A DNA stretch of 64,000 bases from Parcubacteria group bacterium (GTDB lineage Bacteria > Patescibacteriota > Patescibacteriia > UBA2169), in assembly GCA_016181765.1 (NCBI GenBank), contig JACOYR010000001.1, positions 16,847-80,846 on the forward strand, read 5' to 3'. This document shows, piece after piece, positions 5,650 to 54,058 of this stretch. How positions within the stretch are numbered: the first letter of the stretch is position 1; each line of letters starts with the position of its first letter. Under the pieces are notes generated by a model. That model was not told where the DNA came from and ran no database searches. It saw nothing but the letters and a program-made list of their open reading frames with translations. A program made the translations under genes and the position numbers.

Positions 5650-5650
5650 C

Positions 5651-15939: not shown

Positions 15940-15975
15940 CCTCCTTGGCAAGGAGGGGGAAGTAGATAGGCAAAC
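15940..15975 (-). repeat. Palindromic repeat family copy 1 (CCCCCTCCTTGGCAAGGAGGGGG + CTAGGGGGTGG tail)
   Basis: Perfect palindrome. Followed (minus orientation) by CTAGGGGGTGG as in copies at 46113 and 53549. Confidence 0.7.
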
Positions 15976-16001
15976 CCGCTCCTGAATACAGGAGCGGGAA
16001 T

Positions 16002-18836
16002 CTAATCATCAAATGAGACTGCAAAACCGGTATCTGATGACAAGTCGCCCTCAAACACGGTTAATCCCGGGCCGAGCACAGACACTTCCCCGTCACCCGC
16101 TGCCTTGCTCCATGAAACTGACCAATTGGAGGGGTAGCGCAGCGCCATTGAATACGGAATCGGCCGAGCGCCGGCTTGTTTCTGCATGATCAGGGAGTAG
16201 CCGGTTCTGGTGTTCGGATTCAGCAAATCATACGGCTTAATTTTGAACGGCAGTTTGTATTTGATTTTCGCCACAACCACAGCGCCAGGAGCAACCTGCA
16301 GCCAGTTGCCGAACACGGTCTTGCCGAACTCGCGGGTGATGCGCGTGCCGCTCGCCTCATCAATGATCACCTTGCCTTCAATGCGAGCAAGCTCTTCATC
16401 GTCCTGGTAATATACCTGCGGAGTTTCAAATAAATTTGATGCCGGCGCTTTGGTTCCGGTAAATGAAACAAGCTCGCTGCCATCGGGGGCGTACACGCGC
16501 ACATAGTCCACGTTGTTTACGCCGGTGAACGCATCACCAAGGTCCCCGCGGTGCTCGCGGATGATGGTGAGTTCTGTTGTGGCCCTGCCTTCATCATCAA
16601 TCACCACTTCCTGGCTCCAGGATTCACTGATCACCCCGTCGGTCTTGCCGCCGCCGATGTTCGCGTGGACCACGGAGAGGTAATCCGTGCTCGCGGATGC
16701 AATGCCCGGCTGCCAGCCCCGGGCTCTGAACGACTCGTTTGCCTCCTGGTCCGCAAAGTAGAGCAGAATGTTCTTTTGGCTGATTTCAGACCTGATGAGC
16801 CCGAGGAGTTCAAGCGCGCGTTCCCCGCTTGAGGCGAGCACGGATTCCAGGACGCGCGGCAATAATTCCCCGATGTACGCCTTTGGCTTGTTCTCTTCTT
16901 TATCATACTCAAGCTCAACCGCAGTTTGGATTTCGGAAATCACGTTTTCGCTGGTAAGCGTTACCCCCTGCTCCGGGAATGCCACGGGCCCGGTGATTGC
17001 CAAGAGCTTTTCCAGGGTGGTTGCCTGCACCGCAATCACCCCGTCCACCGTGGAGTAGCCGGCGTGCTCCAAAAACCAGACGACCTTTGCGGCGCTCGTT
17101 GGCCAGTCCGGGTACCAGTTCGCATCCTGCAGTTCCCAGCGGGCATTGATGAGGGAGAGCGGCTTTGGGGCTTTGACATGCTCCGAGAGATAGCCTTGGA
17201 AATCGTATGCCCCGCCGCCCGGAACCTCTATGTTCACAACCTGCCCGCCGGAAATATCCACGAACGCGAGGCTGCCGATGAACCCGCCCGCCGGGCGCAG
17301 CTCATTGTTGTTCTGGAAGAGCACGGCATAGCGCTTGAGCTCGCGTTCCCCGAGGAGCGTGGAGACTGTGCCCGTAAGCTGGAGCGTATCCTGGATCGCC
17401 GCATTCACGCGGGGCAGTGCCTCGGATGCAGCTGAAAATTTTTCGCGGTACTCTTCGGGCACGGCATTTGGGCTGACTGCCGAGAGGTGCGCTTCTGCGC
17501 TTGCCAAATGCGGCAGAGCGGCCTGGAGCGCTGAACTCAAGCTTGCGAGTGTTTCGGTCGGGCGTTCTCCCGCGCCCAAAGCGCGCGCTGCTTCCTCCAG
17601 GTACTGCCCGGCCTGGGCAAGCTCATCTCCGGCGCCGATCGCGTGCACGCCATCCTGGCCGGCCGGCAAAACTTCCACGAGCGCGCGCAAGGGTGCATTG
17701 AGGGAATCCAGGCTCTGCCGCGCCTGCTCAAAATTCGTCCTTGCCGCGGCAAGGTCCAGAAGGGCGATATTCTGGTAGCCTTCCTTGGTGGCTCCGAGGA
17801 CCGATCCGCGCAGAAAGCTTATTTTTTCTGGAGCAGTCTCTAAAAACTTAACCGGCAACATCACGAACATGCCGATGAGGGCAAACGCCGCGAGCTTGCG
17901 GTAGAGGTGTTGCGGCGGGCGCGCGAACACGGAAAAATAATTGATAACTGCCTCTGCCGCGGCTTTGCCCGAACCCGCCGCAAGCAAGCCGAGAGCGCTG
18001 ACCGCGCGGTAGACTCCGGCAACGCCGAGCGTCACGAGCTTGATGGGCACCACGAGCACTGCTTTGGCCACTGCGATGAGCGTAAAAAACGCCTGCTGGA
18101 TTGCCCACGACACGAATCGGGCCGCTGCCCGGACCACGCTCTTGCTGCCCTTGTTTCCCGCCTCTATGAGGGAGAGGAGCACGGTACACGCAAGCAAAAA
18201 TCCGAGCGGAATGGAAAGTACGAATTCAAACAGCCAGCGTATGGTTGCGAAAAAGGCGCGTATCACCCCGGCGCTCGTGCGGTCCATTATTTCCGAAAAT
18301 GCGACAGGTTTTTGCTTTGCCCTGTGCTTTGATTTGCTTTTCCTCCCCAAGAGGTCAACCGTAACCCGGCCTGCGGCGTTTTTGTACGTTTCCGCGGCCT
18401 GGCTGCGCAAGCGCGCAACCTCCTTCTGCCACCGGGGATTGTCCGGAAGCACGCGGCTTGCGCTGCTTTTGCGGGCGGCCTGCTTGGGCGCGGCTTGTGC
18501 CCCTTTCTCCCACTCCCCGAGCAGGCGCACCACGTGCGGGGAGCGCGTGTTTTCGCCGTGGCGCACAGCCAGGACGTACGAGGGCGCGGCAGGCTTCTCT
18601 CTGCTTGGGGCCTTTAGGGCGCTCTCTTGTGCGGGCGCGGGCGCTTCCGTGGGCATGGTGCTCCTCGGTGCGCGTCGGTGTTCGTACCCGCGCTTGGTTA
18701 CCAGAGCCTCGTAATCGTCGTGGTGGATCACCTTTTTGGTGATTGAAAAATCAAGATTGTCCTTGGCCTCCCGGGCAATTTTCCGTGATGACAGCGATTT
18801 TGATTTTAGCGGAGTTTTGTTTTCTTTTTTGGGCAT
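16002..18836 (-). CDS. Very large (944 aa) membrane-anchored extracellular protein, DUF4012-like
   Basis: N-terminal basic region, TM helices at aa 190-330, extracellular region with LFQNNNELRPAGGFIGS motif (DUF4012 signature as I recall it). Confidence 0.7.
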   Translation of the reverse strand: MPKKENKTPLKSKSLSSRKIAREAKDNLDFSITKKVIHHDDYEALVTKRGYEHRRAPRSTMPTEAPAPAQESALKAPSREKPAAPSYVLAVRHGENTRSPHVVRLLGEWEKGAQAAPKQAARKSSASRVLPDNPRWQKEVARLRSQAAETYKNAAGRVTVDLLGRKSKSKHRAKQKPVAFSEIMDRTSAGVIRAFFATIRWLFEFVLSIPLGFLLACTVLLSLIEAGNKGSKSVVRAAARFVSWAIQQAFFTLIAVAKAVLVVPIKLVTLGVAGVYRAVSALGLLAAGSGKAAAEAVINYFSVFARPPQHLYRKLAAFALIGMFVMLPVKFLETAPEKISFLRGSVLGATKEGYQNIALLDLAAARTNFEQARQSLDSLNAPLRALVEVLPAGQDGVHAIGAGDELAQAGQYLEEAARALGAGERPTETLASLSSALQAALPHLASAEAHLSAVSPNAVPEEYREKFSAASEALPRVNAAIQDTLQLTGTVSTLLGERELKRYAVLFQNNNELRPAGGFIGSLAFVDISGGQVVNIEVPGGGAYDFQGYLSEHVKAPKPLSLINARWELQDANWYPDWPTSAAKVVWFLEHAGYSTVDGVIAVQATTLEKLLAITGPVAFPEQGVTLTSENVISEIQTAVELEYDKEENKPKAYIGELLPRVLESVLASSGERALELLGLIRSEISQKNILLYFADQEANESFRARGWQPGIASASTDYLSVVHANIGGGKTDGVISESWSQEVVIDDEGRATTELTIIREHRGDLGDAFTGVNNVDYVRVYAPDGSELVSFTGTKAPASNLFETPQVYYQDDEELARIEGKVIIDEASGTRITREFGKTVFGNWLQVAPGAVVVAKIKYKLPFKIKPYDLLNPNTRTGYSLIMQKQAGARPIPYSMALRYPSNWSVSWSKAAGDGEVSVLGPGLTVFEGDLSSDTGFAVSFDD

Positions 18837-18845
18837 GTGCGGTGA

Positions 18846-34292: not shown

Positions 34293-34519
34293 AATAAGGG
34301 GTTTCTGTATTTACCAACCACAGAATGAACGGTGCCACTTGTAATCTGTTGACAGAACACGAACGTTGTGATAAAGGTACCTTTGTAATCCGCACCTGGA
34401 CAACCAATCACCCCACCCTTTGCCGCAAGGAGGGCACTGTGGTCAAAACCGCGATCAGACCGTTTCCCACGTGGCGCACTCATGGCGCTCACGATCCGCT
34501 GACCCGGAAGGAGGAGAGT

Positions 34520-34948
34520 ATGTTCCGTGTTGAAAGCGCAACCTCGTACGACGGTGTGGTCCGCTTTCTTCGGGAAGAGGATGGACCTGCCGCGCTGTTG
34601 GCGAGCGAGCTCGCAATGTTCCTGGAAGAGCGCCTCGGAATGCCGGTGGAGATGGTGTACAACACAGGTTTCCATGGGAACGCACCGAGCGCTATGTGCC
34701 ATATCACGTTTCCGAGAGTCGGCCACGGAATAGCTCGGTTCCTGGTGTTTAAGAACGTTGACTACAAAAGGACGCCGGATGAGTGGCTTCCAGACACAAC
34801 CAACGCGCAGTTCTTTCGGCACATGCTCAAAGAGGCTGCGTGTTCCATCCAGCAGATGGCCCTGCCCCAGCTCCAGCGCCAGTTGGAGGGATGGACCGCG
34901 CGGGTGAGTGAAATCCTCGCGGAAACCGAACAGGCGGTTCCGGCCTGA
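34520..34948 (+). CDS. Hypothetical protein (GC-rich, 142 aa)
   Basis: GGAGGAG SD 7 nt before ATG at 34520. ORF-track 34325..34948 longer version lacks SD. Confidence 0.45.
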   Translation: MFRVESATSYDGVVRFLREEDGPAALLASELAMFLEERLGMPVEMVYNTGFHGNAPSAMCHITFPRVGHGIARFLVFKNVDYKRTPDEWLPDTTNAQFFRHMLKEAACSIQQMALPQLQRQLEGWTARVSEILAETEQAVPA

Positions 34949-35051
34949 CCGCTCCTTGGGGCGCAACAACCCCGAACCGAAGCCTCGTGCGCTCCCCGCG
35001 CCCGAGGCTTCTTTTTTTGTCCGCAATGCGCACACGTTTGCAAAGAACCCC

Positions 35052-35085
35052 ACCTTAGTCCTCCCCTTGGTAAGGGGAGGAAACC
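35052..35085 (-). repeat. Palindromic repeat family copy 2 (CCTCCCCTTGGTAAGGGGAGG variant with GACTAAGGTGGGG tail)
   Basis: Palindrome at about 35060-35080 between convergent gene ends. Confidence 0.55.
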
Positions 35086-36044
35086 TAAAAGTCGCCGATT
35101 TCCTTTTTGAAGATTTCCTCAATGGTGAACGAATCAAGGGTCCACACGAGTTTTGAATTCTCGCGGCTGATGTAGTATTCCTCGCTCGGCGCGGGCAGCT
35201 TGTCCCCCACGTACAGCGCGTCTTTTTCCCCGGTTTCAAACCCAAGCTCAATGCGGATAGTTTGCGCCTTGTCCGCCGAAGAAGAGGAGCTGCCGGTAAT
35301 GCCGGCTTGCTCTTTGGTGACATCTTCTTTGATATCAGCCGCAAATAAATCTGCCAATGACGCGAGCACAGGCCCGATCACCGCATCGGACGAATCTTTT
35401 GAAAACGGCGTTACCTGCTTCCAGCCGTCCCCGGTTTTGATCAACGAAATCTCCACCTCATTATAGCGCCAGTCAATGGACGTAACTTTGAGCGGGTCAA
35501 ATATCCACACGCGCTTGTCGCGCCAGTCCGTGCGGTTGAACACGGGCCGGATGTTTTGCGCCGCCAGATAGACGTTGTCCGAATCGGCGCGGCGGACGTA
35601 TGTGCTCAAAAAACCCGGGCCCTCTTTGCCGATAATGGCGTCTATAACCTGGGTATCCCCTTCCCACGCCTGAATCTTGACGCCCACATCATCCACCTGC
35701 AGTTCCTCGCGCTTTTCCGGATTGCGGCTCGCGAGCTCCCCGCGGGGCAGGTCAGCAAATATCTTGAGCAGGTCCGCGATGTACTCCGGATTCACGCGGT
35801 ACGCGCCCTTGTTCGCGACCACCCATTCATCATCCCGCTTTTCCAGAACATTCTCATATAATCCGTTGACCCCGAGGATGCGGATTTTATCCAGGGCATC
35901 CGCGTCCACGCGGAAAAATGTGGCATCAGAACGCGCATTTTTGTTGCCGGCCATGCCTTGATATATACCCAAGCCGACAAGAAGCACGGCGAGCACGCCG
36001 AGGAGGAAAAAAATATTTTTGAACTTGGAGATTAGCAAAGTCAT
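35085..36044 (-). CDS. DUF4340-domain protein (partner of Gld-type ABC transporters), N-terminal TM anchor
   Basis: 319 aa, TM at N-terminus. Family commonly encoded with gldA/gldF/gldG-like operons. Confidence 0.6.
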   Translation of the reverse strand: MTLLISKFKNIFFLLGVLAVLLVGLGIYQGMAGNKNARSDATFFRVDADALDKIRILGVNGLYENVLEKRDDEWVVANKGAYRVNPEYIADLLKIFADLPRGELASRNPEKREELQVDDVGVKIQAWEGDTQVIDAIIGKEGPGFLSTYVRRADSDNVYLAAQNIRPVFNRTDWRDKRVWIFDPLKVTSIDWRYNEVEISLIKTGDGWKQVTPFSKDSSDAVIGPVLASLADLFAADIKEDVTKEQAGITGSSSSSADKAQTIRIELGFETGEKDALYVGDKLPAPSEEYYISRENSKLVWTLDSFTIEEIFKKEIGDF

Positions 36045-42136: not shown

Positions 42137-42137
42137 A

Positions 42138-43547: not shown

Positions 43548-43588
43548 ATGCGTGTAGTGTACCAAGTTTAGTGCTATACTGAAAGCAT

Positions 43589-44245: not shown

Positions 44246-44307
44246 GCGCGGTCGCGCGCCAAGAACGCCGCCGCGTCCGCCTGGCTGTGGGGGAGTATGC
44301 TGTATGC

Positions 44308-44550
44308 TTATTCAAACTCCGGCAAGGGAATTCCTTTTTCGCGCAAACGATTAACAATGTCGGCGCGCTCTTTGCGTTCTGATTCGCTCAACTGGGTTTG
44401 CCTGCTGGTTTCACCAAGCGCAACCAAACGCTCTGCGTCTTTCTGGTCCGCGCCAAGGATCTGTAAAAGCCTGATAGTTTCTATGGTACCCAGGTTGTGC
44501 AAGTACTGGGCAGTCAATTCGTGGGGCTCGCCTTCCATATTCTCCATCAT
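44308..44550 (-). CDS. Hypothetical small acidic protein
   Basis: 80 aa ORF; no family. Confidence 0.4.
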   Translation of the reverse strand: MMENMEGEPHELTAQYLHNLGTIETIRLLQILGADQKDAERLVALGETSRQTQLSESERKERADIVNRLREKGIPLPEFE

Positions 44551-44598
44551 ACCAAAAAGCGGCCCTGGGGGAAAGGCCGCTCTCTGGGGGGTTGGTAC

Positions 44599-45444: not shown

Positions 45445-45448
45445 ACGT

Positions 45449-46105
45449 TTAGCTCTCTTTGGGCGCGGGACTAATCGCGCCTTCTGCATCTACAACGCGG
45501 CCGTCCTCTTTTGGTTGCGCGACAGCGCCCGCCGATGAGGCGGGCATCTTCTTGTGAAGCAGGGCGGTACCGCGGGACAATAATGACTTGACGGTTCCCT
45601 CCCGCTTTCCCAAAATTGACGCAATCTCTGATATCTTTTTATCTTCAAAATACCGGAGTGATAATACTTCCTGGTATTTTTCCGGAAGTTTGCGCAGGGC
45701 CGCGTGCGCGAGCTTCCACGATTGCGCGCGCTCCAGCTCCTCTTCCTGCTCCATCAATTCCCGCGCCAGATCGCGCTCATCGGCAAGCTCAATGCCGGAT
45801 TTTTCAAGCAGGGCCTCCAGCGAGTAGTGGCGCTTTTTGGCGGCGCGGAAATACTGGTTGATTTCGTTGGTCGCGATCCGGTAGAGCCAGGATGAAATTG
45901 AGATGCCGCGCCACTTGAATTGCCACAGCCTGTCCAAGGCTTTGAAAAACGTTTCAGACGCGATGTCCTGGGCCGCATGCACGTTGCCCGTGCGCTTTAA
46001 GATGTATCCGAAAATGGGCTCATAGTACTCGTCAAAAACCGCCCCGAACGCTTGGGGGTCTTTTTGCGCTTGTGTGATGAGTTGCTTTTCTTGTTGCTTG
46101 TCCAT
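45449..46105 (-). CDS. ECF-type RNA polymerase sigma-70 factor
   Basis: Region 2 (YYEPIFGYILKRTGNVHAAQDIASETFFKA) and region 4 HTH (VLSLRYFEDKKISEIASILGKREGTVKSLLSRG). Confidence 0.8.
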   Translation of the reverse strand: MDKQQEKQLITQAQKDPQAFGAVFDEYYEPIFGYILKRTGNVHAAQDIASETFFKALDRLWQFKWRGISISSWLYRIATNEINQYFRAAKKRHYSLEALLEKSGIELADERDLARELMEQEEELERAQSWKLAHAALRKLPEKYQEVLSLRYFEDKKISEIASILGKREGTVKSLLSRGTALLHKKMPASSAGAVAQPKEDGRVVDAEGAISPAPKES

Positions 46106-46112
46106 ACAGTTC

Positions 46113-46150
46113 CCCCTCCTTTCATAAGGAGGGGGCTAGGGGGTGGTGAG
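46113..46150 (+). repeat. Palindromic repeat family copy 4 (CCCCCTCCTTtcatAAGGAGGGGG + CTAGGGGGTGG). Its arm supplies the SD (AAGGAGGGGG) 7 nt upstream of the ECF sigma start codon on the minus strand
   Basis: Minus-strand reading: CCCCCTCCTTatgaAAGGAGGGGGaactgtATG. Confidence 0.65.
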
Positions 46151-46302
46151 AGGGTCAGTCAATCAAAAATCCGCGTCTAGTATACTATAACGCGGGGGTG
46201 GCGGAAAGGTTGCATTGCGCTTTTGTGATTTTTCTGGTATAACGGAGTGGCCCAACTATTTCGGAATTTCCACCCTCCGAGCCGCAGGAGGCGGCAGACG
46301 AG

Positions 46303-46527
46303 ATGACGAAAGAAGCGCTCTTTACTGGTTTGTTCCTGGGGGGACCCGCAATCGTGTTCACGGTCTATGTGTTGATCGCGAATCCGAGCATTGATCGCGC
46401 GGTCGTGGGACTCGTGCTGTGCATGGTTTGGGCGGTTGCCTGGAACGCCACGCTCCTGTCCCCAGGGCCGTTTTCACTGCCGCCGCAACCGCACATGAGG
46501 AATACGTCGGAACAGACGTCAGAGTAG
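46303..46527 (+). CDS. Small membrane protein (74 aa)
   Basis: Two TM helices; followed by strong terminator. Confidence 0.45.
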   Translation: MTKEALFTGLFLGGPAIVFTVYVLIANPSIDRAVVGLVLCMVWAVAWNATLLSPGPFSLPPQPHMRNTSEQTSE

Positions 46528-46566
46528 CGCCCGCAAGCGCGTAACAACAACGCGCGCGTTCCACGA

Positions 46567-46607
46567 CCCCCCGCAGGCTCAACTAGCTGCGGGGGGTATT
46601 TATTTTG
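46567..46607 (+). terminator. Intrinsic terminator (10-bp GC stem CCCCCCGCAG/CTGCGGGGGG, then TATTTATTTT)
   Basis: 46567-46576 / 46587-46596. Confidence 0.65.
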
Positions 46608-46639
46608 CAAAAAAGACCACTTAAAAATACGGCAAAATA

Positions 46640-46775
46640 CGGCTCAACCCCCTCCAAAGCCCTGGGAGCCTTGCGGCTCATTTACACCATTTGAGCCGCA
46701 CCTGCGGCTCACGATGCACGGAGATGAGCCACAACCCAGAGAACCAACTCGTCGCGGCGGCAGCTGGGGCGCCGC
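46640..46775. repeat. Direct repeat A (about 100-130 nt; about 85% identical to 48805-48935). Contains internal 31-nt duplication and a decayed copy of the 3' end of a 48877..49338-like gene
   Basis: CGGCTCAACCCCCTCCAAAGCCCTGGGAGCCTTGCGGCTCA...CGATGCACGGAGATGAGCCACAACCCAGAGAACC vs copy B. Confidence 0.6.
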
Positions 46776-46786
46776 TCTCTTCGGCG

Positions 46787-47086
46787 TTATGCCAACTCTT
46801 TCATCTTGCCGGTTGAGTACTGGTGCAGAACGGACGACACCAGTGTCTGGTAGGGCAAACCCTTCTCCTGCGCCCGCACTTTCAGCGCGTGTAAATCCCG
46901 CTCCGAGATGCGGATGTTGATGTTGCGCTTCTTGATCAGCGTTGCGCGCGCGGCGGCCACGAGCTTCTGCTTTTCTTCTTCAAGATTGGGCACGCTCTTA
47001 AACTCGCCTCTGTTATAGGCGTCCAGAAGTTCCTTCTCTTCCCTATCTAATGATTCGTAATATTTTTCCTCTAGATCCTGTGGCAT
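46787..47086 (-). CDS. brnA: BrnA antitoxin (ribbon-helix-helix, CopG-like)
   Basis: 99 aa; C-terminal RISERDLHALKVRAQEKGLPYQTLVSSVLHQY RHH motif; paired with BrnT. Confidence 0.7.
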   Translation of the reverse strand: MPQDLEEKYYESLDREEKELLDAYNRGEFKSVPNLEEEKQKLVAAARATLIKKRNINIRISERDLHALKVRAQEKGLPYQTLVSSVLHQYSTGKMKELA

Positions 47087-47089
47087 AGA

Positions 47090-47386
47090 TTATCTCTTAG
47101 TGATATACTTTTTTGTCGCCTTTCGGCTTGGTATGATGGTTTTTAAAAAAATTTTCTCATCATCTTCCACATACGGAACAAGGTACGCGTATCCGCCAAC
47201 TTCCACGACGAACATTTTCTGGTTGGGATACTTTTTCTGATTCAGGTGCCGAATAATGTCCAGCACCCGTTCGTTTTTATTTAGTAGCGGAACCATGTCA
47301 TCAAAACAGACTCCATGCCGAATTCTTAATTGCGAATTTTTGTCTTTGTTCCACTGGTAATCCTTCATGTACACATAATATGACAA
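47090..47386 (-). CDS. brnT: BrnT toxin (DUF497 ribonuclease)
   Basis: 98 aa; WNKDKNSQLRIRHGVCFDDMVPL and FVVEVGGYAYLVPYVEDDEKIFLKTIIPSRKATKKY typical of BrnT. Confidence 0.7.
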   Translation of the reverse strand: MSYYVYMKDYQWNKDKNSQLRIRHGVCFDDMVPLLNKNERVLDIIRHLNQKKYPNQKMFVVEVGGYAYLVPYVEDDEKIFLKTIIPSRKATKKYITKR

Positions 47387-47602
47387 TGTCTATATTTTGT
47401 CAATACTCCTTTTCCACAACAAAAACGCACCACTGCGCGCCTCCGTGTACCCCCATCGGCTCAAATGGTGTACATGAGCCGACTTTTAGTCTGGTGGTGA
47501 GGCGACCTGGTGGGCGATAAAAGAAAACCGCCCCATCTCGCGCGTGGCAAGACAGGGCGGGTGTGCGGCGCACTAAAAACAGACAGTGCGCGAACTATGG
47601 AG

Positions 47603-48658
47603 CTACCGACCCTCCTCCTGGGAGAGCACCTCAAGACGCTCCTCTGCATCAAGCTTGGCCTGGAGCGCCTTGTCCTGTTCGCGGAGGAGCGCCATCTGCG
47701 CTTCGGTCCGCTGGCGATACAGGTACACGATTGCGGCCTTGGAACCGGCCAGCGCGGCCTCTTCCATGGACCGGGGCACACCACGCTCTTTGCGCAACCC
47801 ATTCTCGGTCAGCCGGGGAATATCCGACAGCTCCGTGCCCAGCGCCAGCTGTTCCAGCTTCAGGAAACAGGCCGTGTCAAACTCCCAGCTCTGACCAAGG
47901 AGAAGTATGATCTCGTCGAGGCTGTCCAGGATCTCAATGAACCGATCCCGGCGCGCGAACAAGAGCATCTGCATGCGGGAGTCGCGCTCCAAGATATGGC
48001 GCATGCCCGGCAGATGCGGGGCAAGTCCATGACCCCGGTACTGTTCAAACTTCCAGCCGACCTCGCACAGGTCCATGAGAAACGCGCGGACGATTCTGGG
48101 GTAGAACCCGCGCTCCGGGTGACGGTGCGGGTAGTTCCGAATCCCGCCCCCCTCGCGGCGGAAAAACCAGAGCACCTTCCGAAACACCTCGGGCACGAAG
48201 ATGTGCTCCACCCAGGCCCATGAAGGTATGGTGGGGTGCGTTTCGTGGCTCCGGAGCCGCTCGCGCGCGAACACCTCAAACGCGTCCCGAGCGATCCGCT
48301 GGCGGATTTCCGGCCAGCTCCGGCGTTCGCCAAGAAAGAACGGCCGGGAGTCCGAATGCCAGCCCAAACCGCGCTCACCTGCCCTGTTGAAGCTCCCCGT
48401 GTCGTTGTGGCCGTCAGCCACTTCCATATACAGGCAGTCGCGCTCCACCTCTTCTTCCGCGCCCGCAACCTGCATGGTGTAGCCGCCAAGAATCAGATCA
48501 CGCTTCCTGCCTGCCTCTGTGGCCGCGCCAAACTCCTGCTTCCACTCGCGCCACAAAGTCATGCTGCTGGTGACTGAAAGGAGCGGATGGTGTCCCTCTT
48601 CTCGGGCTGGTGCCGCATCTTCGTTCGTAGGTGCGTGCGTAGCCATGATGGCCTCCAC
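47603..48658 (-). CDS. Hypothetical protein, GC-rich (about 64%), His/Arg-rich
   Basis: 351 aa ORF with no competing frame. Composition deviates from neighbours. Confidence 0.5.
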   Translation of the reverse strand: MEAIMATHAPTNEDAAPAREEGHHPLLSVTSSMTLWREWKQEFGAATEAGRKRDLILGGYTMQVAGAEEEVERDCLYMEVADGHNDTGSFNRAGERGLGWHSDSRPFFLGERRSWPEIRQRIARDAFEVFARERLRSHETHPTIPSWAWVEHIFVPEVFRKVLWFFRREGGGIRNYPHRHPERGFYPRIVRAFLMDLCEVGWKFEQYRGHGLAPHLPGMRHILERDSRMQMLLFARRDRFIEILDSLDEIILLLGQSWEFDTACFLKLEQLALGTELSDIPRLTENGLRKERGVPRSMEEAALAGSKAAIVYLYRQRTEAQMALLREQDKALQAKLDAEERLEVLSQEEGR

Positions 48659-48804
48659 AAAAAAATGAACTGCATTTTACGCCGATTGACGCTCGGCGAA
48701 ACGTACCCCTAACCTACGCCCGAAACCGCATTTTGTCAATCCAAAAACCGCCCCAACGCACCCCAAAATACCCACCTCATCGGCGCCCGCCTGCCGGCGA
48801 GGCA

Positions 48805-48935
48805 GGGACAGGCGGCTCAACCCCTCCAAAGCCCCGGGGGCCTTGCGGCTCACGATGCCCGGAGATGAGCCACAGCCTAGGAAACCGGCTCGTACCGGGC
48901 ATGGCTGGCAGCGCCCACCCGCTTGAGCCGCCCGG
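48805..48935. repeat. Direct repeat B (partner of 46640-46775), overlapping stop codon and 3' UTR hairpins of 48877..49338
   Basis: See repeat A. Confidence 0.6.
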
Positions 48936-49338
48936 CGCGGACCAGCTCCGAGAGGTAGCGGGTGGCCGTGGCATCCGAGACGCGGAGCAATTTTTGCACG
49001 CCATCATTGGTGATGCTCCCCTCTGCGCGGGCGCGGGCCGCGATTTTCTCCAGCTTTGCCCGCTTGCGGAACTGGATTCTCTCCCGTGCCCGCGACAACA
49101 GCCCCCGCACTCCGCTTTCCGTGCCTGCCAGAGAGGCGGCAGGAGCTGGGGATGATGAAGTAACTGGGACCAAAGGCGGGGTTGATGGTTCAGGCGCGGC
49201 TAGCTCGGGTAGGGGTGATGGTGTGGGTACGTCCGCCGGAGAAACGGATTCGGACTGAACCACGGGTTCCACCGGCGGCACGGACGCGGCTGGCTCAACC
49301 GAGGGTTCAGGTGTAATTGCGGGAGTTTCTTGTTGCAT
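48877..49338 (-). CDS. Pro-rich protein with C-terminal winged-helix/HTH DNA-binding domain
   Basis: N-terminal PEPS-rich low complexity. C-terminal ITNDGVQKLLRVSDATATRYLSELVRAGRLKRVG HTH. Minus-strand -10 TGCTATACT at about 49390. Confidence 0.5.
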   Translation of the reverse strand: MQQETPAITPEPSVEPAASVPPVEPVVQSESVSPADVPTPSPLPELAAPEPSTPPLVPVTSSSPAPAASLAGTESGVRGLLSRARERIQFRKRAKLEKIAARARAEGSITNDGVQKLLRVSDATATRYLSELVRAGRLKRVGAASHARYEPVS

Positions 49339-49429
49339 TGATTGGATGATAGGGCAAAAAGGTACCTTTAGGCTTTCCTTATGATGTCAGTATAGCATAT
49401 CAACATTTGTACCGAGATTACTCTCTTAG

Positions 49430-49568
49430 GACTTACGCGTTTGACAGAAATAGTCGTCATTCTGGAGGCTTTGTACTCAAAGCCGATAGAATCTCCGTGA
49501 AAAACGCATAGATTCTATCGCTCAAGAGTACTTTCGCTCCAGAATGACGTCAAACGCGTAAGTCCTAT
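49430..49568. repeat. Long imperfect palindrome (about 140 nt) forming an extended hairpin at the boundary of the AT-rich island
   Basis: GGACTTACGCGTTTGAC/GTCAAACGCGTAAGTCC (17 bp), GTCATTCTGGAG/CTCCAGAATGAC (12 bp), GATAGAATCT/AGATTCTATC (10 bp), centre CCGTGAAAAACGC. Confidence 0.65.
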
Positions 49569-49570
49569 CT

Positions 49571-50221
49571 CTAACAAATTTGCACATTCCCATCGCCTAG
49601 GCACACTTGGTGCTTCAGATCCCATAATAAGTATCTAATGTAGTGAGTTTCTTCAGGCGATGATTCGCTACTCAAAAGCTTGTGTATATTTCGTGCAAAA
49701 AACTTCTTTGAATTTCTACTGGCTTGAGCGCTTGAATTTCCCTTGAGTAAGGAGATAGCCACTTGGTTTGAGGGCTCAAGGAAAAGTTCGGCCACTGTAT
49801 CTTGATGGGGGCGTGAAATCTGATGCTCATCGTACCAAAAAATAAAATCCGCATCGTACCCTATATACGAAAAAGTGCCGGACTTTACGCTTTTAGGTCC
49901 TAACTCAACTGCTGATTGACACGATAAAGCGTATACAACCCTAGATTCAAAAATATCCTCATTAACACCCGCCCGAACTAGAATCTTATCATCTTGTCCG
50001 GTGACATGACCTGGACCACCATGACCATTTATAAAAACAAATGAGGGCTTGAGCTTCTTGACTCTGCTTTCAAATTCTTTTTTATTTGCTTTCTCGCCAT
50101 GGAGATCAAATAGCCTAAATCCTTTTGCATTGATAATTTTTATTACCTTGCCAGCCCATGCAGATAAATACCGAGTTGGAATATCATGATTAGGCCTCGT
50201 CACTAAGCACGCTATACTCAT
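49571..50221 (-). CDS. Hypothetical protein with minimal caspase-like (CHAT/C14-like) His-Cys dyad; AT-rich island gene 3
   Basis: 216 aa. Hydrophobic strand plus H (PSFVFINGHGGPGH) and hydrophobic strand plus C (VVYALSCQSA) about 25 aa apart, reminiscent of the caspase/hemoglobinase fold. GC about 40% vs window about 57%. Confidence 0.5.
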   Translation of the reverse strand: MSIACLVTRPNHDIPTRYLSAWAGKVIKIINAKGFRLFDLHGEKANKKEFESRVKKLKPSFVFINGHGGPGHVTGQDDKILVRAGVNEDIFESRVVYALSCQSAVELGPKSVKSGTFSYIGYDADFIFWYDEHQISRPHQDTVAELFLEPSNQVAISLLKGNSSAQASRNSKKFFARNIHKLLSSESSPEETHYIRYLLWDLKHQVCLGDGNVQIC

Positions 50222-50474
50222 ACAGTTCGCCAGTTTTTAATGACTGCAAAAAATTCATATCAATTTCAATCATTTTTTTGCCTATCTCGTCTCCATCGCT
50301 CACATGCTGGATTAAATCATCTCTGCTAAAAGACCCCTCGCCGCCAATCGACATACTAAAACCAACAGGCATCGCACCGAGACGCGCCTTAACCAATTCT
50401 CGAACATCCTCATCACGCTCTTCCTGTTCCGTCTGTCCGCTCTGTTGTGCATTTTGTGTTTGTGTCGTACTCAT
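50190..50474 (-). CDS. Hypothetical small acidic protein; AT-rich island gene 2
   Basis: 94 aa ORF; overlaps gene 3 start by 32 nt and gene 1 stop by 4 nt. Confidence 0.45.
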   Translation of the reverse strand: MSTTQTQNAQQSGQTEQEERDEDVRELVKARLGAMPVGFSMSIGGEGSFSRDDLIQHVSDGDEIGKKMIEIDMNFLQSLKTGELYEYSVLSDEA

Positions 50475-50665
50475 ATAATTTGAAGTTCGACGAGTTTGTT
50501 AAAAATTTTTTTACCAAGCTCGGTATCATTACTGATCTCAACATAAGCAACATTCCATGTTATGGGAATGCGCCTGTCATTCTCTCGCTCAACCGTCAAG
50601 ACAATATCATCCCGAATATTAATGGGAAGGTTTGCGTAAACTTTCAAAAATCTTGCCTTGTCCAT
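50471..50665 (-). CDS. Hypothetical small protein; AT-rich island gene 1
   Basis: 64 aa ORF, first gene of the three-gene minus-strand cassette. Confidence 0.4.
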   Translation of the reverse strand: MDKARFLKVYANLPINIRDDIVLTVERENDRRIPITWNVAYVEISNDTELGKKIFNKLVELQII

Positions 50666-50928
50666 AGATCTCTAATTTCTTTTATTATACCACATTCTCA
50701 ACATTCACGCCAACACCGTACCACTCCAATCTTGGAAGGTCAAATCATTTATGTATCCCTTCCTCTTTCATCATACCACCTAAATACTTTCTATCCTATA
50801 CACGCCACTCGGCGAGGCAAGCACCAAGGCCAGCGTGCCCGCCGATGAGGTGGATGCCGAGTTTACCCGCCGGAGAGAGGCGGGCTTACCTTGATCCTCG
50901 CGAGAGGCGAGGCTGATTTGACAACTAT

Positions 50929-50957
50929 TGACTTTTTTATTAAAATATGCTATCATT
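50929..50957 (+). promoter_or_regulatory. Sigma70-type promoter (TTGACT-17-TATCAT with TGc extension) for 51005..51709
   Basis: TTGACT 50929-50934; TGCTATCAT 50949-50957; SD AAGGAG then GTG start. Confidence 0.55.
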
Positions 50958-51004
50958 ATATTCACAAAAACCAACCATAATGCACCTACACAAGGAGAAA
51001 GACA

Positions 51005-51709
51005 GTGAGCACCAAATCGCTCCAGAAGTTGTACGACGAGGGATTCTTCAAGCCCGGACACTCGGAAGCAGTAGATGAGTGCATCACAAACATCGTCTTG
51101 CTCAACACCGACCAAGTGTTCCGCACGGGAGTGCCGCGCAGGATCCCCCGCCCAGCACTCCCCGCAGAAGAATTCACGTTTCACTGGTCTCGCTTCGTGG
51201 GCGCGGTTACGGCCAACTTCCCGAACATTGAGCCGTACAACCTGACGGCCATCACCACGCTCATGGTCGCGGAGAAGCGCCACCAGGAAGAACTGTTTCT
51301 CTGCCAGCTCATCGAGGCGCTCTGCCCCAGCTGCGAGTCGATGTGCTTCCTCGGACACGCCTACTGGCACCTCGAGGATCGCTACCTCGCGCTGCAGTGC
51401 TACCAGGAAGCGCACCGCCGCAGTGAGCGCTTCTGCAAGGAGCGCAAACTCGGGCCCGACAACCCCAACTGGCTGGACGCGGGGGATTACCTCCGCTACG
51501 CCGCCGAGTGCCAGCTCGCGCTGGACATGCCCGGCGACGCCCTCACGTCGCTCGTGCGCTGCGTACAGATCTTCAAAGCAGCAGGCAAGTACGGCACCTT
51601 CAAGCGCGAGGATCTGACCAGGATCCACCGGTCCGTGATGGAAGCCGCCGGATGGAATGCCGTCGGCGATCTGTGGGAAGTTCCCACAGAAGCACCTACT
51701 GGCGCGTAG
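51005..51709 (+). CDS. Hypothetical protein (GTG start), Cys-containing, TPR-like helical repeats; GC-rich orphan between AT-rich segments
   Basis: AAGGAG SD 8 nt before GTG; followed by strong terminator. Confidence 0.55.
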   Translation: MSTKSLQKLYDEGFFKPGHSEAVDECITNIVLLNTDQVFRTGVPRRIPRPALPAEEFTFHWSRFVGAVTANFPNIEPYNLTAITTLMVAEKRHQEELFLCQLIEALCPSCESMCFLGHAYWHLEDRYLALQCYQEAHRRSERFCKERKLGPDNPNWLDAGDYLRYAAECQLALDMPGDALTSLVRCVQIFKAAGKYGTFKREDLTRIHRSVMEAAGWNAVGDLWEVPTEAPTGA

Positions 51710-51734
51710 AATCACTCAGCGCGCCACCCCCGAT

Positions 51735-51770
51735 CCCCCGCACGCTATCGCTAGGTGCGGGGGTTTTTAT
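51735..51770 (+). terminator. Intrinsic terminator (CCCCCGCAC...GTGCGGGGG then TTTTTAT)
   Basis: 9-bp GC stem. Confidence 0.65.
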
Positions 51771-51854
51771 ACAAAAACACCCCGCCGCCGGTCCGCCGCC
51801 TGCTCGCCGAGGAGGCGGGGAGAGGCGGGTTAATCTGGTCCATGATATAATAAA

Positions 51855-52313
51855 GTGCGTATGCACATAGAAATAGACCAATCCGGAAAAATTGAGCACA
51901 CCAGCAAAACCACGGTTATCGCCTACGCAAACGGCAGTTCAAGAAGCTTGCAGATAAGCGCGAGCGAAAAACAAAAACTCATACGAACGATGAAAACAAA
52001 CAGGCATCCCAAGACCACATACGTGTACACCATATTTGCAACGCTCATATTTATGCTTCTGCGCGACATGCGCGCAAGCGATTCCACAAGCGTCACCATC
52101 GACAGGGAATACCCGGGCAAAGAACCAACTATCAAAAACTTCCTGCTGCAGCTCTACCGGAAAGCCCATAAAAAATCTCCGGCCATACGGTTTGACACTA
52201 TCGGGAAGAAGAGTATGGCGCACAAAGCCGCGCTTGCGGTGTTCCAAAATAAAAAGCGCCCTGACATCATAGTCACGGCCCAAGACGCCTTACAGACGCT
52301 GTACGAGAGATAA
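51855..52313 (+). CDS. Hypothetical protein (AT-rich)
   Basis: 152 aa ORF with TM segment; followed by hairpin ATCCCGG-tccag-CCGGGAT. Confidence 0.4.
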   Translation: MRMHIEIDQSGKIEHTSKTTVIAYANGSSRSLQISASEKQKLIRTMKTNRHPKTTYVYTIFATLIFMLLRDMRASDSTSVTIDREYPGKEPTIKNFLLQLYRKAHKKSPAIRFDTIGKKSMAHKAALAVFQNKKRPDIIVTAQDALQTLYER

Positions 52314-52565
52314 AAAGGTTGGAGATCCCGGTCCAGCCGGGATAATCCTTAGCTAAGAACGCCGATTATGAACGTTGGTCACTAAGGCATCCAACCGTTG
52401 GTGGCAGTATACCACGCCTCCCGGAAAAGTCAAGCCCACGAATTGAGATGTCATTTCAGTAGTGGTGCGTTAAAAATTCAATAGAGACAAAGCATAAACC
52501 ACGCTCATCATCTCATCCTACGCTCTTGAGTACAAGAGCTTCGGACGACAGGCGGCAGAAGACTC

Positions 52566-52907
52566 TCATCCTGAAATCTTTTCAATCGTAGAAGGCACAA
52601 TATATATATCCCAATCCGACATACCGATCACATCAACAATTTCATACCTGATTTTTACCGGCAATCCAACTTTCTTGAATTCATTCGGCAATTCATAAAT
52701 AGCCGACGTATCTGAAAAAGAAAGACGTTCTTTTTTTACCGGAATACCAAGAAAGGTGCGGCTGGTTTCAATCCCCCACCAACCACCATCTTGATCTATA
52801 TACTGAATCGTTCCAACGCGCGTCTTAGTCTGCATCGGGTCTATCACCCAAAATGCCCCATACATTATCAATCCAACTATTGCAATAACCAAAATCTTTT
52901 TTATCAT
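52566..52907 (-). CDS. Hypothetical membrane-anchored protein
   Basis: 113 aa, N-terminal TM; 4-nt overlap with rarA. Confidence 0.45.
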   Translation of the reverse strand: MIKKILVIAIVGLIMYGAFWVIDPMQTKTRVGTIQYIDQDGGWWGIETSRTFLGIPVKKERLSFSDTSAIYELPNEFKKVGLPVKIRYEIVDVIGMSDWDIYIVPSTIEKISG

Positions 52908-54058
52908 AGATACTTCTTATTTTTCAACTCCTCCGGCAGAAAGCTCTCATCAGTATACTTCTCATACCCATTGCCATAACCCAGCTCCTTCATCAACCCT
53001 GTCGGCGCATTGCGGATATTGAGGGGAACCGGGAGGTTGCCGTGCTGTTTCACATCCGCTTGAGCGGCGCGCAGGGCATCATAGCTGGAGCGGTCCTTTT
53101 TGCATTGGCACAAATACGCCACTCCATGGGCGAGGTTAATGGCGCACTCCGGGTAGCCGATGGTTTCGCAGCTGCGGAACACGGCGTTGGCGACGACGAG
53201 AGCCGTGGGCGCGGCCAGGCCAATGTCCTCGCTCGCGAATATCACCATCCGGCGGGCAATAAAGAGCGGGTCCTCCCCCGCGTCCACCATGCGCGCCAAA
53301 TAGTAGATGGCGGCGTCCGGCTGGCTCGCGCGCATGCTTTTGATGAACGCGCTGATGACGTTGTAATGCTCCTCCCCTTTTTTGTCGTAACGCAAATGTT
53401 TTGATTGGAGCGCCTGTTTGAGGTTTGCGACGGTGATATCCTTGTACAGGGTTGCGGTTGCCTCCAGCATGGAGATGGCGGCGCGGGCGTCTCCGTTTGC
53501 CATGGCAATGAGCCAGTCCTTGGCATCCTGGTCCACAGAACCTCCCCTAGCCCCTCCTTGGTAAGGAGGGGAATTTAGGATGCGGTTGATGATGGAGAGC
53601 ATATCATCTTTTGTGAGCTCGTTGAGGACGAACACGCGGCAGCGTGAGAGGAGCGGGCTGATGACCTCAAAGCTCGGGTTTTCCGTGGTCGCGCCAATGA
53701 GCGTAAGCTCCCCGGTTTCAACGTAGGGCAGGAGAAAATCCTGTTGGGCCTTGTTGAAGCGGTGAATTTCGTCAAGAAACAATACTTTTGATTTTTCAGT
53801 TTCATGGCTGATGATGTGCTTGATGTCTGCTTTGCCCGCGGACACGGCAGACAGCTCAAACAGCTCCGCATCCAGGGCGCGGGCATAGATTTTGGCGAGC
53901 GTGGTTTTGCCTACACCCGGCGGGCCCCAGAGGATGAATGAAAAGAGGTGCTTTTCCTGGATGGCAACGCGCAAAGGCTTGTCCGGGCCCACAAGATGCT
54001 CTTGGCCCATGAATTCATCCAAAGACTTGGGGCGGATTTTTGAGGCAAGGGGTTCCAT
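52904..54058 (-). CDS. rarA: Replication-associated recombination protein A (RarA/MgsA AAA+ ATPase)
   Basis: Walker A GPPGVGKTT, Walker B VLFLDEIHRFNK, sensor motifs, C-terminal MgsA domain. Contains in-frame palindromic repeat insertion (see repeat copy 3). Confidence 0.85.
   Translation of the reverse strand: MEPLASKIRPKSLDEFMGQEHLVGPDKPLRVAIQEKHLFSFILWGPPGVGKTTLAKIYARALDAELFELSAVSAGKADIKHIISHETEKSKVLFLDEIHRFNKAQQDFLLPYVETGELTLIGATTENPSFEVISPLLSRCRVFVLNELTKDDMLSIINRILNSPPYQGGARGGSVDQDAKDWLIAMANGDARAAISMLEATATLYKDITVANLKQALQSKHLRYDKKGEEHYNVISAFIKSMRASQPDAAIYYLARMVDAGEDPLFIARRMVIFASEDIGLAAPTALVVANAVFRSCETIGYPECAINLAHGVAYLCQCKKDRSSYDALRAAQADVKQHGNLPVPLNIRNAPTGLMKELGYGNGYEKYTDESFLPEELKNKKYL
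53549..53585 (-). repeat. Palindromic repeat family copy 3 (CCCCTCCTTGGTAAGGAGGGG + CTAGGGGAGG), located inside rarA coding sequence in frame (encodes SPPYQGGARGG linker)
   Basis: rc reads AATTCCCCTCCTTACCAAGGAGGGGCTAGGGGAGG = ...N S P P Y Q G G A R G G... Confidence 0.65.

Follow-up and report, generated by a model that had tools for sequence, protein, structure and literature searches.

The 64,000-nt stretch of Parcubacteria (Patescibacteria) DNA analyzed here, hereafter called the window, carries four short dispersed repeats that very probably are class II purine-motif intrastrand-triplex repeats, of the same kind as the BoxC, PIT, and TM_ECO elements (Hoyne & Maher 2000, 2002; Holder et al. 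2015, PMC4666352). A preliminary description had regarded them as a novel family of palindromes followed by a CTAGGGGGTGG tail; this architecture has, in fact, already been published as BoxC/PIT/TM_ECO, with an identical class II purine-motif definition in the TM_ECO literature (Holder 2015, PMC4666352), and because the repeats belong to a described class, the genome would not be hiding a new element type. The palindrome and its tail consist, in order, of a pyrimidine arm, a loop, a purine arm, a 3-nt spacer, and a mirror of the purine arm, in which G lies opposite G and A lies opposite A or T. That the CTAGGGGGTGG tail mirrors the purine arm, the defining feature, had been missed.

Copy 1 (positions 15924 to 15959, minus strand, 36 nt) is intergenic and reads CCCCCTCCTT-GCC-AAGGAGGGGG-CTA-GGGGGTGGTT on the minus strand (pyrimidine arm, loop, purine arm, spacer, and mirror third strand), being triplex compatible at 10/10 positions. 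Copy 2 (35046 to 35081, minus strand, 36 nt) represents a variant family and is composed of TCCTCCCCTT-ACC-AAGGGGAGGA-CTA-AGGTGGGGTT on the minus strand, again with 10/10 compatible positions. Copy 3 (46112 to 46147, plus strand, 36 nt) is located beside the start of an ECF sigma gene and has the plus-strand composition CCCCCTCCTT-TCAT-AAGGAGGGGG-CTA-GGGGGTGGT (9/10), and copy 4 (53539 to 53571, minus strand), with CCCCTCCTT-ACC-AAGGAGGGG-CTA-GGGGAGGTT on the minus strand (9/9), lies inside rarA and is 33 nt long, equivalent to 11 codons. The arms CCCC(C)TCCTT and AAGGAGGGG(G) are common to copies 1, 3, and 4, whereas copy 2 differs (TCCTCCCCTT and AAGGGGAGGA). An explicit stem search found perfect stems of 9 to 10 bp, the DNA hairpin folds range from –9.4 to –11.9 kcal/mol, and the second-loop spacer is CTA in all four. 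The first loops of copies 1 to 4 are 3, 3, 4, and 3 nt long, respectively; a 4-nt loop, which had been claimed for every copy, is therefore found only in copy 3.

All four elements of the preliminary description exist and overlap the ranges given there, but the ranges of copies 1, 2, and 4 were off by about 6 to 16 nt and left out the conserved flank on one side. It was likewise right in placing one copy in rarA and one at the sigma gene, but had swapped the two sites, since the rarA copy is that at 53539 to 53571 and the sigma copy that at 46112 to 46147. A search for the three-part triplex motif (8-nt core, at most one mismatch) recovered exactly these four matches in the 64-kb window versus none in 100 local shuffles, and the plain palindrome pattern is likewise above its shuffles in the window. 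A class I triplex search of the window gave 0 matches, and an Rfam scan of the window detected only RNase P RNA and four tRNAs, with no match at the repeats. A pyrimidine-motif triplex on the C-rich strand was considered and rejected, because its third strand would be AACC(A/T)CCCC, with A in place of the necessary T. The string CCCTTTGCCGCAAGGAGGG, described as a degenerate copy, is present at 34416 to 34434 (plus strand), about 85 nt upstream of the ATG at 34520, but it satisfies neither the hairpin nor the triplex rules; it is possibly a copy that has decayed and lost part of its pyrimidine arm, and the gene starting at 34520 has its own Shine-Dalgarno (SD) sequence, GGAAGGAGGAGAGT. A separate, CGTC-headed repeat family, distinct from the triplex-type copies, occurs in the window at 4741 to 4799 and 54066 to 54095.

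The resemblance to BoxC/PIT/TM_ECO extends through the whole element: a pyrimidine arm of 9 to 10 nt, a loop of 3 to 6 nt, a purine arm, a second loop of 3 nt, and a reverse-Hoogsteen strand running as the mirror of the purine arm, in which either A or T matches an A, for a total of about 34 to 37 nt in which stems are conserved and loops are variable. Both are dispersed in either orientation, form inverted pairs (in other genomes in the case of the present family), and show no associated transposase (for the window copies, among the 10 ORFs scanned). The finder used here recovers five of the six published TM_ECO sequences. The window repeats are nevertheless a different sequence family of the same kind, as their stems are of the CCCCTCCTT / AAGGAGGGG / GGGG[AT]GGTT type rather than CCCTCNCCC / GGGNGAGGG / GGGNGAGGG, and their arms do not match the TM_ECO/BoxC consensus CCCTCNCCC N3-6 GGGNGAGGG N3 GGGNGAGGG. 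Arms of the TM_ECO type (GGGAGAGGG and then GGGTGAGGG) share some contigs with the AAGGAGGGG type. Compared with TM_ECO, which has four runs of at least three G, the window copies have only two and little G-quadruplex potential; in addition, TM_ECO elements are always intergenic in E. coli K-12 (Holder 2015, PMC4666352), whereas in the present Parcubacteria host one copy is in frame in a conserved gene and another supplies an SD sequence. For a TM_ECO oligonucleotide, the triplex was seen by circular dichroism (CD) and NMR (Holder 2015, PMC4666352); it was undetected by in vivo DMS footprinting and did not form in double-stranded DNA in vitro (PMC4666352).

Comparison across other genomes, where the check for further copies proposed in the preliminary description returned many, supports the third strand. 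A hairpin-only pattern matched at least 120 stretches from many phyla, and GGGG[AT]GG is found within 7 nt on one side in 89 of 142 hairpins. In another 29 of the 142, it lies beyond a self-folding mini-hairpin sitting in the spacer, and a recognizable third strand is absent in about 17% of canonical hairpins. The second loop can accommodate such a mini-hairpin. Under a stricter score, 99 of 147 hairpins pass, compared with a mean of 3.4 and a maximum of 9 in shuffles. Of 71 hairpins with other arms in about 1 Mb of DNA from other genomes, 52 have a third strand that mirrors their own arm, against means of 2.5 with shuffled flanks and 15.3 (maximum, 24) in an arm-swap control that is imperfect because many arm families look alike. 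Opposite G, the third strand has G 1,021 times and another base 14 times; opposite A, it has T (344), A (132), C (19), or G (11). The same covariation is visible within the window, where the variant arm AAGGGGAGGA of copy 2, in place of AAGGAGGGGG, is accompanied by the tail AGGTGGGGTT in place of GGGGGTGGTT. Arm and mirror third strand appear to change together in at least 15 stem families from many phyla and predicted viral contigs, and the motif is present in 58 viral stretches. Such covariation across many families speaks, on comparative grounds, for selection of the triplex fold itself, and from the sequence rules together with the covariation, we infer that the window copies can fold as triplexes.

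Copy 4 lies in frame in rarA (52904 to 54058, minus strand), which encodes the 384-amino-acid replication-associated recombination protein A. Its G-rich strand is the sense strand of the gene, and its 33 nt, a multiple of three, encode the 11 residues S163-PPYQGGARG-G173 (SPPYQGGARGG) in a variable loop of the RarA lid domain. The composition of the element is such that stop codons are possible only in the loop or the spacer. The closest RarA orthologues (P0002 to P0004, 86 to 89% identity) do not have the 11 residues, and the 33 nt are absent from the rarA DNA of two relatives (L123 and L125), bearing out the earlier proposal of a lineage-specific, in-frame insertion; orthologues without the repeat do not encode SPPYQGGARGG. 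In alignments with relatives, the codons flanking the site are too diverged to define insertion boundaries or a target duplication.

Copy 3 is adjacent to the gene of an ECF-type sigma-70 family protein (45449 to 46105, minus strand; 218 amino acids, with Sigma70_r2 and r4_2 domains). In the sense of the sigma mRNA (minus), the arm AAGGAGGGGG lies 6 nt (AACTGT) upstream of the ATG at 46105, not 7 nt as previously measured, and is the only SD-like sequence before the gene. As had been proposed, this SD would be base paired in the RNA, in a 10-bp hairpin of about –20 kcal/mol. A promoter-like motif, GCAACCTTT-N16-CGTTATAGTA (46181 to 46213, minus strand), is conserved upstream of orthologous sigma genes in two relatives (L123 and L126), and its position suggests that copy 3 belongs to the transcribed sigma leader. 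The orthologous leaders contain neither the element nor an SD, and the leader is too diverged in alignments with relatives for insertion boundaries to be defined. Translational control of the sigma gene by copy 3 is possible; more simply, sequestration of the SD would be a by-product of the insertion.

The remaining two copies lie beyond the 3' ends of genes. Copy 1 is located 43 nt downstream of the stop codon of a 944-amino-acid open reading frame (ORF; 16002 to 18836, minus strand), with another hairpin (15975 to 15998) in between, and copy 2 begins 3 nt past the TAG stop codon of a DUF4340 gene (35085 to 36044, minus strand). These two copies had been described as terminator-like hairpins, but a T-run follows neither, and they are not canonical terminators. 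The only terminator-like prediction near copy 1 is a weak hairpin, GGGCTAGGGGGTGGTTTTAGCCC with ATTTTT after it; this hairpin overlaps the third strand of the copy and is distinct from its stem.

These gene contexts could be taken to indicate that the repeats act at the RNA level, with copy 3 as an SD-sequestering switch of the sigma gene and copies 1 and 2 as terminators or mRNA-stabilizing 3' hairpins. The hairpin that encloses the SD arm so close to the ATG, the conserved upstream promoter-like motif by which copy 3 should be transcribed, the short distances of copies 1 and 2 from the preceding stop codons (43 nt and 3 nt, respectively), and the weak hairpin with ATTTTT at copy 1 are in line with this idea. 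However, the same element also occurs within a coding region, the orthologous sigma genes work with neither element nor SD, the hairpins of copies 1 and 2 are not followed by T-runs, and PIT elements have neither promoter nor terminator activity in E. coli, according to the cited literature. An RNA-level role was set aside as a general explanation because elements in other genomes occur in either orientation relative to genes and are unbiased with respect to local GC skew (69 versus 74); with GC skew as the proxy, no replication-strand bias was found either. RNA regulation also leaves the mirror third strand unexplained, as the purine motif forms in DNA and not in RNA (cited literature), and is quite improbable. 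It is hardly credible that rarA has ordinary conserved coding sequence here and that the four sites resemble each other by coincidence, as SD-like or low-complexity sequence: the corresponding loop of E. coli RarA is indeed similarly long and contains YGGQ, but the closest orthologues have no such segment in protein or DNA, and the 33 nt contain the full three-part motif, which was never found in the shuffles.

A mobile element of the REP/MITE type, as the preliminary description had suggested, would have its palindrome moved by RAYT, an IS200/IS605-type tyrosine transposase, or another transposase, and its conserved tail would function in recognition or as a guide, not as a triplex strand. 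Like REP and BIME sequences, which are dispersed palindromic repeats of 20 to 40 nt often arranged in inverted pairs or clusters, the present elements are short, dispersed, and patchy among close relatives; two of these have 0 elements in 21 kb and 17 kb, respectively, which is too little sequence for a significant difference. In other genomes, they often form inverted pairs 40 to 500 nt apart, as well as tandem arrays, and they extend to predicted viral contigs. REPs, however, have a conserved GTAG-type head and a link to a RAYT gene, and neither was observed with the window elements: the spacer context is CTAG in the window and TTAG, CTG, TTG, CAG, or others elsewhere, so that the tetranucleotide beside the hairpin is not conserved and no GTAG- or CGTC-type tag is present, and a scan of 10 ORFs, each located either between copies 3 and 4 or close to copy 1, found no RAYT (Y1 transposase) gene. 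The ORFs adjoining copy 3 encode a BrnT/BrnA toxin-antitoxin pair and proteins without a family match, with no transposase, and the scanned set as a whole gave nothing else. Whereas MITEs are units of 50 to 500 bp with terminal inverted repeats and target-site duplications, the window copies are solitary 33- to 36-nt units without terminal inverted repeats, in flanks too diverged to define a duplication. Mobility genes were also not found near TM_ECO, in which inverted pairs are common (Holder 2015, PMC4666352). A recognition tail is not expected to change as the mirror of each arm variant, and a REP/MITE-type element is improbable. A G-quadruplex/hairpin switch, a model put forward for BoxC of E. 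coli and for repeats of archaea, would instead exploit the four G-runs of the G-rich purine arm and tail, and published work describes related sequences that switch between G-quadruplex, hairpin, and triplex in K+. Each window copy could form a two-tetrad quadruplex at best, because only two of its runs (GG, GGGG(G), GGGG(G), and GG) have three or more G, whereas the G-quadruplex motif calls for four; moreover, mirror symmetry and the matching of A by A or T, neither of which a quadruplex requires, are both observed. This switch is accordingly very improbable.

For the intrastrand triplex, we propose that the pyrimidine and purine arms of the G-rich strand would form a Watson-Crick hairpin of 9 to 10 bp, and that the third segment would fold back antiparallel onto the purine arm after the 3-nt spacer, pairing through reverse-Hoogsteen G*G-C, A*A-T, and T*A-T triplets. 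Because the motif forms in DNA and not in RNA according to the literature, the selected structure is most likely one of DNA, a transient single-stranded fold during replication, repair, or a copying step. The patchy distribution suggests a selfish repeat, and the family is most likely maintained as a repeat that is selfish or nearly neutral and is copied by some mechanism, its local effects probably being by-products of where copies landed. Copy 4 would have added 11 residues to the variable loop of the RarA lid domain, copy 3 would have put a strong SD 6 nt before the sigma start, with sequestration in the hairpin most likely damping translation, and copies 1 and 2 would have landed just past gene 3' ends.

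Published copies of such repeats, namely, TM_ECO of E. coli K-12 (PMC4666352) and a repeat of methanogenic archaea (PMC8044849), are intergenic only. The latter, the G-rich/C-rich repeat of Methanomicrobiaceae, similarly combines a dispersed GC hairpin with a G-rich strand and could form an antiparallel intramolecular triplex, but it is archaeal, entirely intergenic, and strong in G-quadruplex potential and has the opposite strand order, with the C-tract 3' of the G-runs (PMC8044849). In-frame occupation of genes, mostly in Patescibacteria, by contrast, appears to be undescribed; the cases comprise RarA (two or more hot spots in several lineages), Lgt, TsaE, CysRS (genes rarA, lgt, tsaE, and cysS), a beta-CASP nuclease, and a family 2 glycosyltransferase, among others. 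Searches of the literature for the raw repeat sequences or the encoded peptide strings returned nothing relevant. The closest parallel in behavior is the Rickettsia palindromic elements (RPEs), which were reportedly described by Ogata and colleagues in 2000 as in-frame insertions in conserved protein-coding genes. RPEs measure about 100 to 150 bp, are not known outside Rickettsia, and lack a mirror third strand. Both are small palindromic repeats that add peptide segments at permissive sites in a reduced genome; unlike RPEs, the window elements are 33 to 36 nt long, have an unrelated sequence, and occur in many phyla, and the likeness is one of behavior only.

A broader reading, to which we would give somewhat less than even odds, is that these elements regularly settle in frame and in leaders, in Patescibacteria and occasionally elsewhere, as an RPE-like source of protein loops and SD sequences, and that the DNA triplex is selected in vivo. 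The genes that carry in-frame copies are essential or conserved, and most of them belong to ultrasmall Patescibacteria genomes in which intergenic space is scarce; the occurrence in many phyla and on predicted viral contigs bears on how the family spreads. For annotators, the elements yield segments rich in G, P, and S (SPPYQGGARGG, SPSFTKEGVGGG, and PLLxKEGLGEV), as well as spurious ORFs. If true, the broader reading would suggest that a class of repeats that has been without a function since the 1990s is copied or maintained by an undiscovered, structure-specific mechanism.

An exhaustive search of the window for perfect stems of 8 bp or longer, together with direct reading of the four sites, confirmed four homopyrimidine/homopurine hairpins: copy 1 at 15937-15959 (CCCCCTCCTT-GGC-AAGGAGGGGG), copy 2 at 35059-35081 (TCCTCCCCTT-GGT-AAGGGGAGGA), copy 3 at 46112-46135 (CCCCCTCCTT-TCAT-AAGGAGGGGG), and copy 4 at 53551-53571 (CCCCTCCTT-GGT-AAGGAGGGG). 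When copy 3 is read on the minus strand and the other three on the plus strand, all four share the one-sided flank AACC(A/T)CCCC-TAG, and the full elements occupy 15924-15959, 35046-35081, 46112-46147, and 53539-53571; the G+C content of the window is 56%. The repeat family claimed in the preliminary description is therefore real, and its elements lie where they were reported, with coordinates shifted and the labels of two copies interchanged: judged by ORF positions, 53539-53571 is the rarA copy and 46112-46147 the sigma-factor copy.

The flank proved to be the key to the architecture. A one-genome-per-species scan for the bare hairpin CCCCTCCTT-N3-4-AAGGAGGGG matched at least 120 stretches, and the matches listed include Bacteroidota, Pseudomonadota, Acidobacteriota, Nitrospirota, Nitrospinota, Chloroflexota, Planctomycetota, Verrucomicrobiota, Armatimonadota, Chlamydiota, Omnitrophota, and many Patescibacteria lineages. 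Almost every hairpin in the flank listing carries GGGG(T/A)GGTT on one side, past a variable spacer of 2 to 5 nt. This tail is the mirror image, not the complement, of the purine arm AAGGAGGGG, with G matched by G and A by A or T. Antiparallel purine-motif triple helices pair G*G-C, A*A-T, and T*A-T; the tail obeys these rules, so that the order along the G-rich strand is pyrimidine arm, loop, purine arm, spacer, and third strand. A pyrimidine-motif triplex on the C-rich strand was ruled out because A stands where T is required.

If the tail is a third strand, it should follow the arm when the arm changes. In copy 2 the arm differs (AAGGGGAGGA) and the tail differs to match (AGGTGGGGTT), with 10/10 compatible positions. 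In about 1 Mb of loci fetched from other genomes, 52 of 71 hairpins with noncanonical arms (for instance, GGGAGAGGG, AAGGGGAGG, AAAGGGGGA, AAGAGAGGG, GAGGAGAGGG, and AGGGGGGGA) are accompanied by a tail mirroring the respective arm with one mismatch or none, compared with means of 2.5 for shuffled flanks and 15.3 (maximum, 24) for swapped arms. Among 147 canonical hairpins selected regardless of tail, the third strand passes in 99 (shuffle mean, 3.4; maximum, 9). By a simple pattern, the tail lies within 7 nt of the hairpin in 89 of 142 canonical cases, and in a further 29 it lies past a GC mini-hairpin in the spacer (e.g., T-GGCGCGAAGCGCC-GGGGTGGTT), which folds on itself so that the tail would still reach the side of the purine arm. 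The third-strand base opposite G is G in 1,021 of 1,035 positions; opposite A it is T (344), A (132), C (19), or G (11). Applied to the whole window, a three-part finder returned exactly the four copies and found none in 100 local shuffles; no class I (reverse-order) motif was found in the window. The variant with a mini-hairpin as second loop, between purine arm and third strand, is seen, for example, at L048 4091, L053 5670, L057 3694, and L110 4471 (loci from other genomes; T-GGCGCGAAGCGCC-G and GCAGCCGCTTCGGCTGAC are examples), and it would escape published searches because these limit the second loop to 1 to 6 nt (ITxF) or 0 to 10 nt (Hoyne et al.). In a Thiomargarita sp. MAG (L094 7128-7292), triplex units stand in tandem with a period of 41 nt, CCCCTCCTTACCAAGGAGGGGTTGGGGGTGGTTAAGTTCCT being repeated several times.

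The claim that the family is novel was not supported; the window repeats belong to an already described class. Holder et al. (2015; PMC4666352) reported abundant bacterial “intrastrand triplex” repeats, among them the E. coli BoxC repeats, which are the PIT elements of Hoyne and Maher and are termed TM_ECO. Their consensus, CCCTCNCCC N3-6 GGGNGAGGG N3 GGGNGAGGG, is a class II purine motif (pyrimidine arm, purine arm, reverse-Hoogsteen strand) with 3,610 copies across 262 proteobacterial genomes; the single-stranded oligonucleotide forms a triplex by CD and NMR, which was undetected in double-stranded DNA and by in vivo DMS footprinting (PMC4666352). Inverted pairs are frequent, strand bias and an associated transposase are absent, and earlier studies had detected neither promoter nor terminator activity (PMC4666352). 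Our finder recovers five of six published TM_ECO sequences, and TM_ECO-type arms are present in some contigs that hold the AAGGAGGGG type. The window family shares the architecture of TM_ECO but differs in stem sequence and in having just two G runs of length three or greater, which makes a G-quadruplex a poor alternative. The REP/MITE framing of the repeats was likewise not supported.

TM_ECO is exclusively intergenic in E. coli K-12 (PMC4666352), and every copy of a related archaeal repeat is intergenic (PMC8044849). Copy 4 lies inside the rarA ORF (52904..54058, minus strand), where it encodes S163-G173, SPPYQGGARGG; two Logan contigs bear the same rarA gene. When 26 orthologues are aligned, the closest proteins (P0002 to P0004; 86 to 89% identity, 373 to 375 aa) read INR-T-SFNM-DQEA, whereas the window protein reads INR-ILN-SPPYQGGARGG-SV-DQDA. 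At the DNA level, five codons in L123 and L125 correspond to three codons, the 33-nt element, and two codons in the window. The suggested in-frame, lineage-specific insertion thus holds at both levels. The site aligns with a variable lid-domain loop of E. coli RarA (PDB 3PVS). Further rarA orthologues from Patescibacteria are occupied by elements of this kind. L124 has two 36-nt copies in another frame (SPSFTKEGVGGG), one at the copy 4 site and the other at a second hot spot, where L126 and L127 have inverted pairs that have decayed. In L128 a single element lies at the copy 4 site, with extra sequence nested within. The shared site may reflect a single old insertion followed by precise losses, or else repeated hits. 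The same variable linker in the rarA of P0010 (L129, ~2290-2330) contains other small GC hairpins, CCCGCC-CGA-GGCGGG and TCCGCC-TTG-GGCGGA, and apparently tolerates small palindromic inserts of several kinds.

Screening 180 elements for long spanning open frames, with Pfam scans of the candidates, confirmed six genes with internal copies, in both orientations: cysS of a Phycisphaerae MAG (between the catalytic and DALR domains), rarA of another Patescibacteria MAG, lgt of Andersenbacteria, a beta-CASP nuclease gene of Magasanikbacteria, tsaE of Giovannonibacteria, and a family 2 glycosyltransferase gene. Among scan-derived loci, verified genes contain 4 of 24 elements on Patescibacteria contigs and 2 of 149 on other contigs, a rough count since checking covered long frames only. 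Occupation of genes is helped by the composition of the element, which confines possible stop codons to the loop or spacer; in copy 4, the CTAG spacer does contain a TAG, but not in the reading frame. A literature search of incomplete coverage returned no description of triplex-type elements within genes or in Patescibacteria.

Copy 3 (46112-46147) adjoins the start of the ECF sigma ORF (45449..46105, minus strand), reading AAGGAGGGGG-AACTGT-ATG on the minus strand, a spacing of 6 nt rather than the 7 nt first given. The gene is orthologous to one in L123 (71% identity). The sigma leaders of the window, L123, and L126 all contain GCAACCTTT-N16-CGTTATAGTA (window 46181-46213, minus strand; L123 12350-12383; L126 ~10296-10330), probably an autoregulated ECF-type promoter. 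In L123 and L126 the ATG comes within ~25 to 35 nt after the motif, and these very short leaders have no SD-like sequence, whereas the window leader has ~56 extra nt, element included. The repeat has accordingly donated an SD to the sigma gene, as had been suspected. In RNA, the arms are predicted to form a 10-bp hairpin (centroid energy, –20.2 kcal/mol), so that the element would both bring a strong SD and hide it. Copy 3 may serve regulation; more simply, it is read as a by-product of insertion that probably damps sigma translation. No transposase lies beside copy 3, whose neighbors are a BrnT/BrnA-like toxin-antitoxin pair (46787-47386) and ORFs without a family match. That pair and a 351-aa ORF without a Pfam match are bracketed by direct repeats (84 to 94% identical) and a 25-nt inverted repeat (96% complementary) at 46649-46757, 48821-48898, 46674-46698, and 47457-47481; the segment may be a small mobile cassette.

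Copies 1 and 2 lie just 3′ of minus-strand genes with the G-rich strand as sense. The terminator role assigned to them found no support: neither hairpin is followed by a T-run, and the only terminator-like scanner match near copy 1 is a weak separate hairpin that uses the third strand (GGGCTAGGGGGTGGTTTTAGCCC, then ATTTTT). The minus strand also carries a perfect match to the sigma-70 promoter consensus (15853-15881; TTGACA-17 nt-TATAAT plus an upstream TG) a short way downstream of copy 1, oriented toward the next ORF on that strand.

The window holds further repeats. A CGTC-headed family, CGTCA-YYCCGAG-N5-6-CGAGGRR-TCTAG, occurs at 4741-4799, as two adjoining units in opposite orientation, and at 54066-54095, where one unit precedes the rarA start codon by 8 nt; its short stem covaries between units (TTCC/GGAA versus CCCC/GGGG), with GA/GA mismatches alongside. 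A long inverted repeat of ~135 nt between ORFs (49430-49564; GACTTACGCGTTTGA ... TCAAACGCGTAAGTC, enclosed arms starting CGTCATTCTGGAG) looks like a MITE or large hairpin. At 9410-9477, a perfect 28-nt inverted repeat (GTAAAAAAAGGTGTCAGGTACCTTTTTT / AAAAAAGGTACCTGACACCTTTTTTTAC) has arms 12 nt apart, either of which forms a small hairpin by itself. A bacterial class A RNase P RNA and four tRNA genes (Gln-TTG, Thr-CGT, Gly-CCC, Gln-CTG) are found at 23745-24151, 3039-3112, 5574-5724, and 60903-60976; the two tRNA-Gln genes share 82% identity.

As to spread, the orientation of the elements is unbiased with respect to local GC skew (69 versus 74), and no element occurs in partly syntenic stretches of 21 kb and 17 kb from close relatives of the window organism, which are too short for significance. 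Holder et al. found TM_ECO unconnected with phages or plasmids (PMC4666352). Predicted viral contigs yielded 58 stretches with the window-type hairpin (IMG/VR, L130 to L187; e.g., IMGVR_UViG_3300044996_000692), with the third strand present in 64 of 71 hairpins; one 23.6-kb contig has up to 6 copies. We infer that the repeats are most likely selfish or near-neutral DNA, and that their persistent selected property is the capacity of the G-rich strand, when single-stranded, to fold into a hairpin plus third strand. The cross-family covariation of arm and third strand and the in-gene behavior in Patescibacteria are worth following up.
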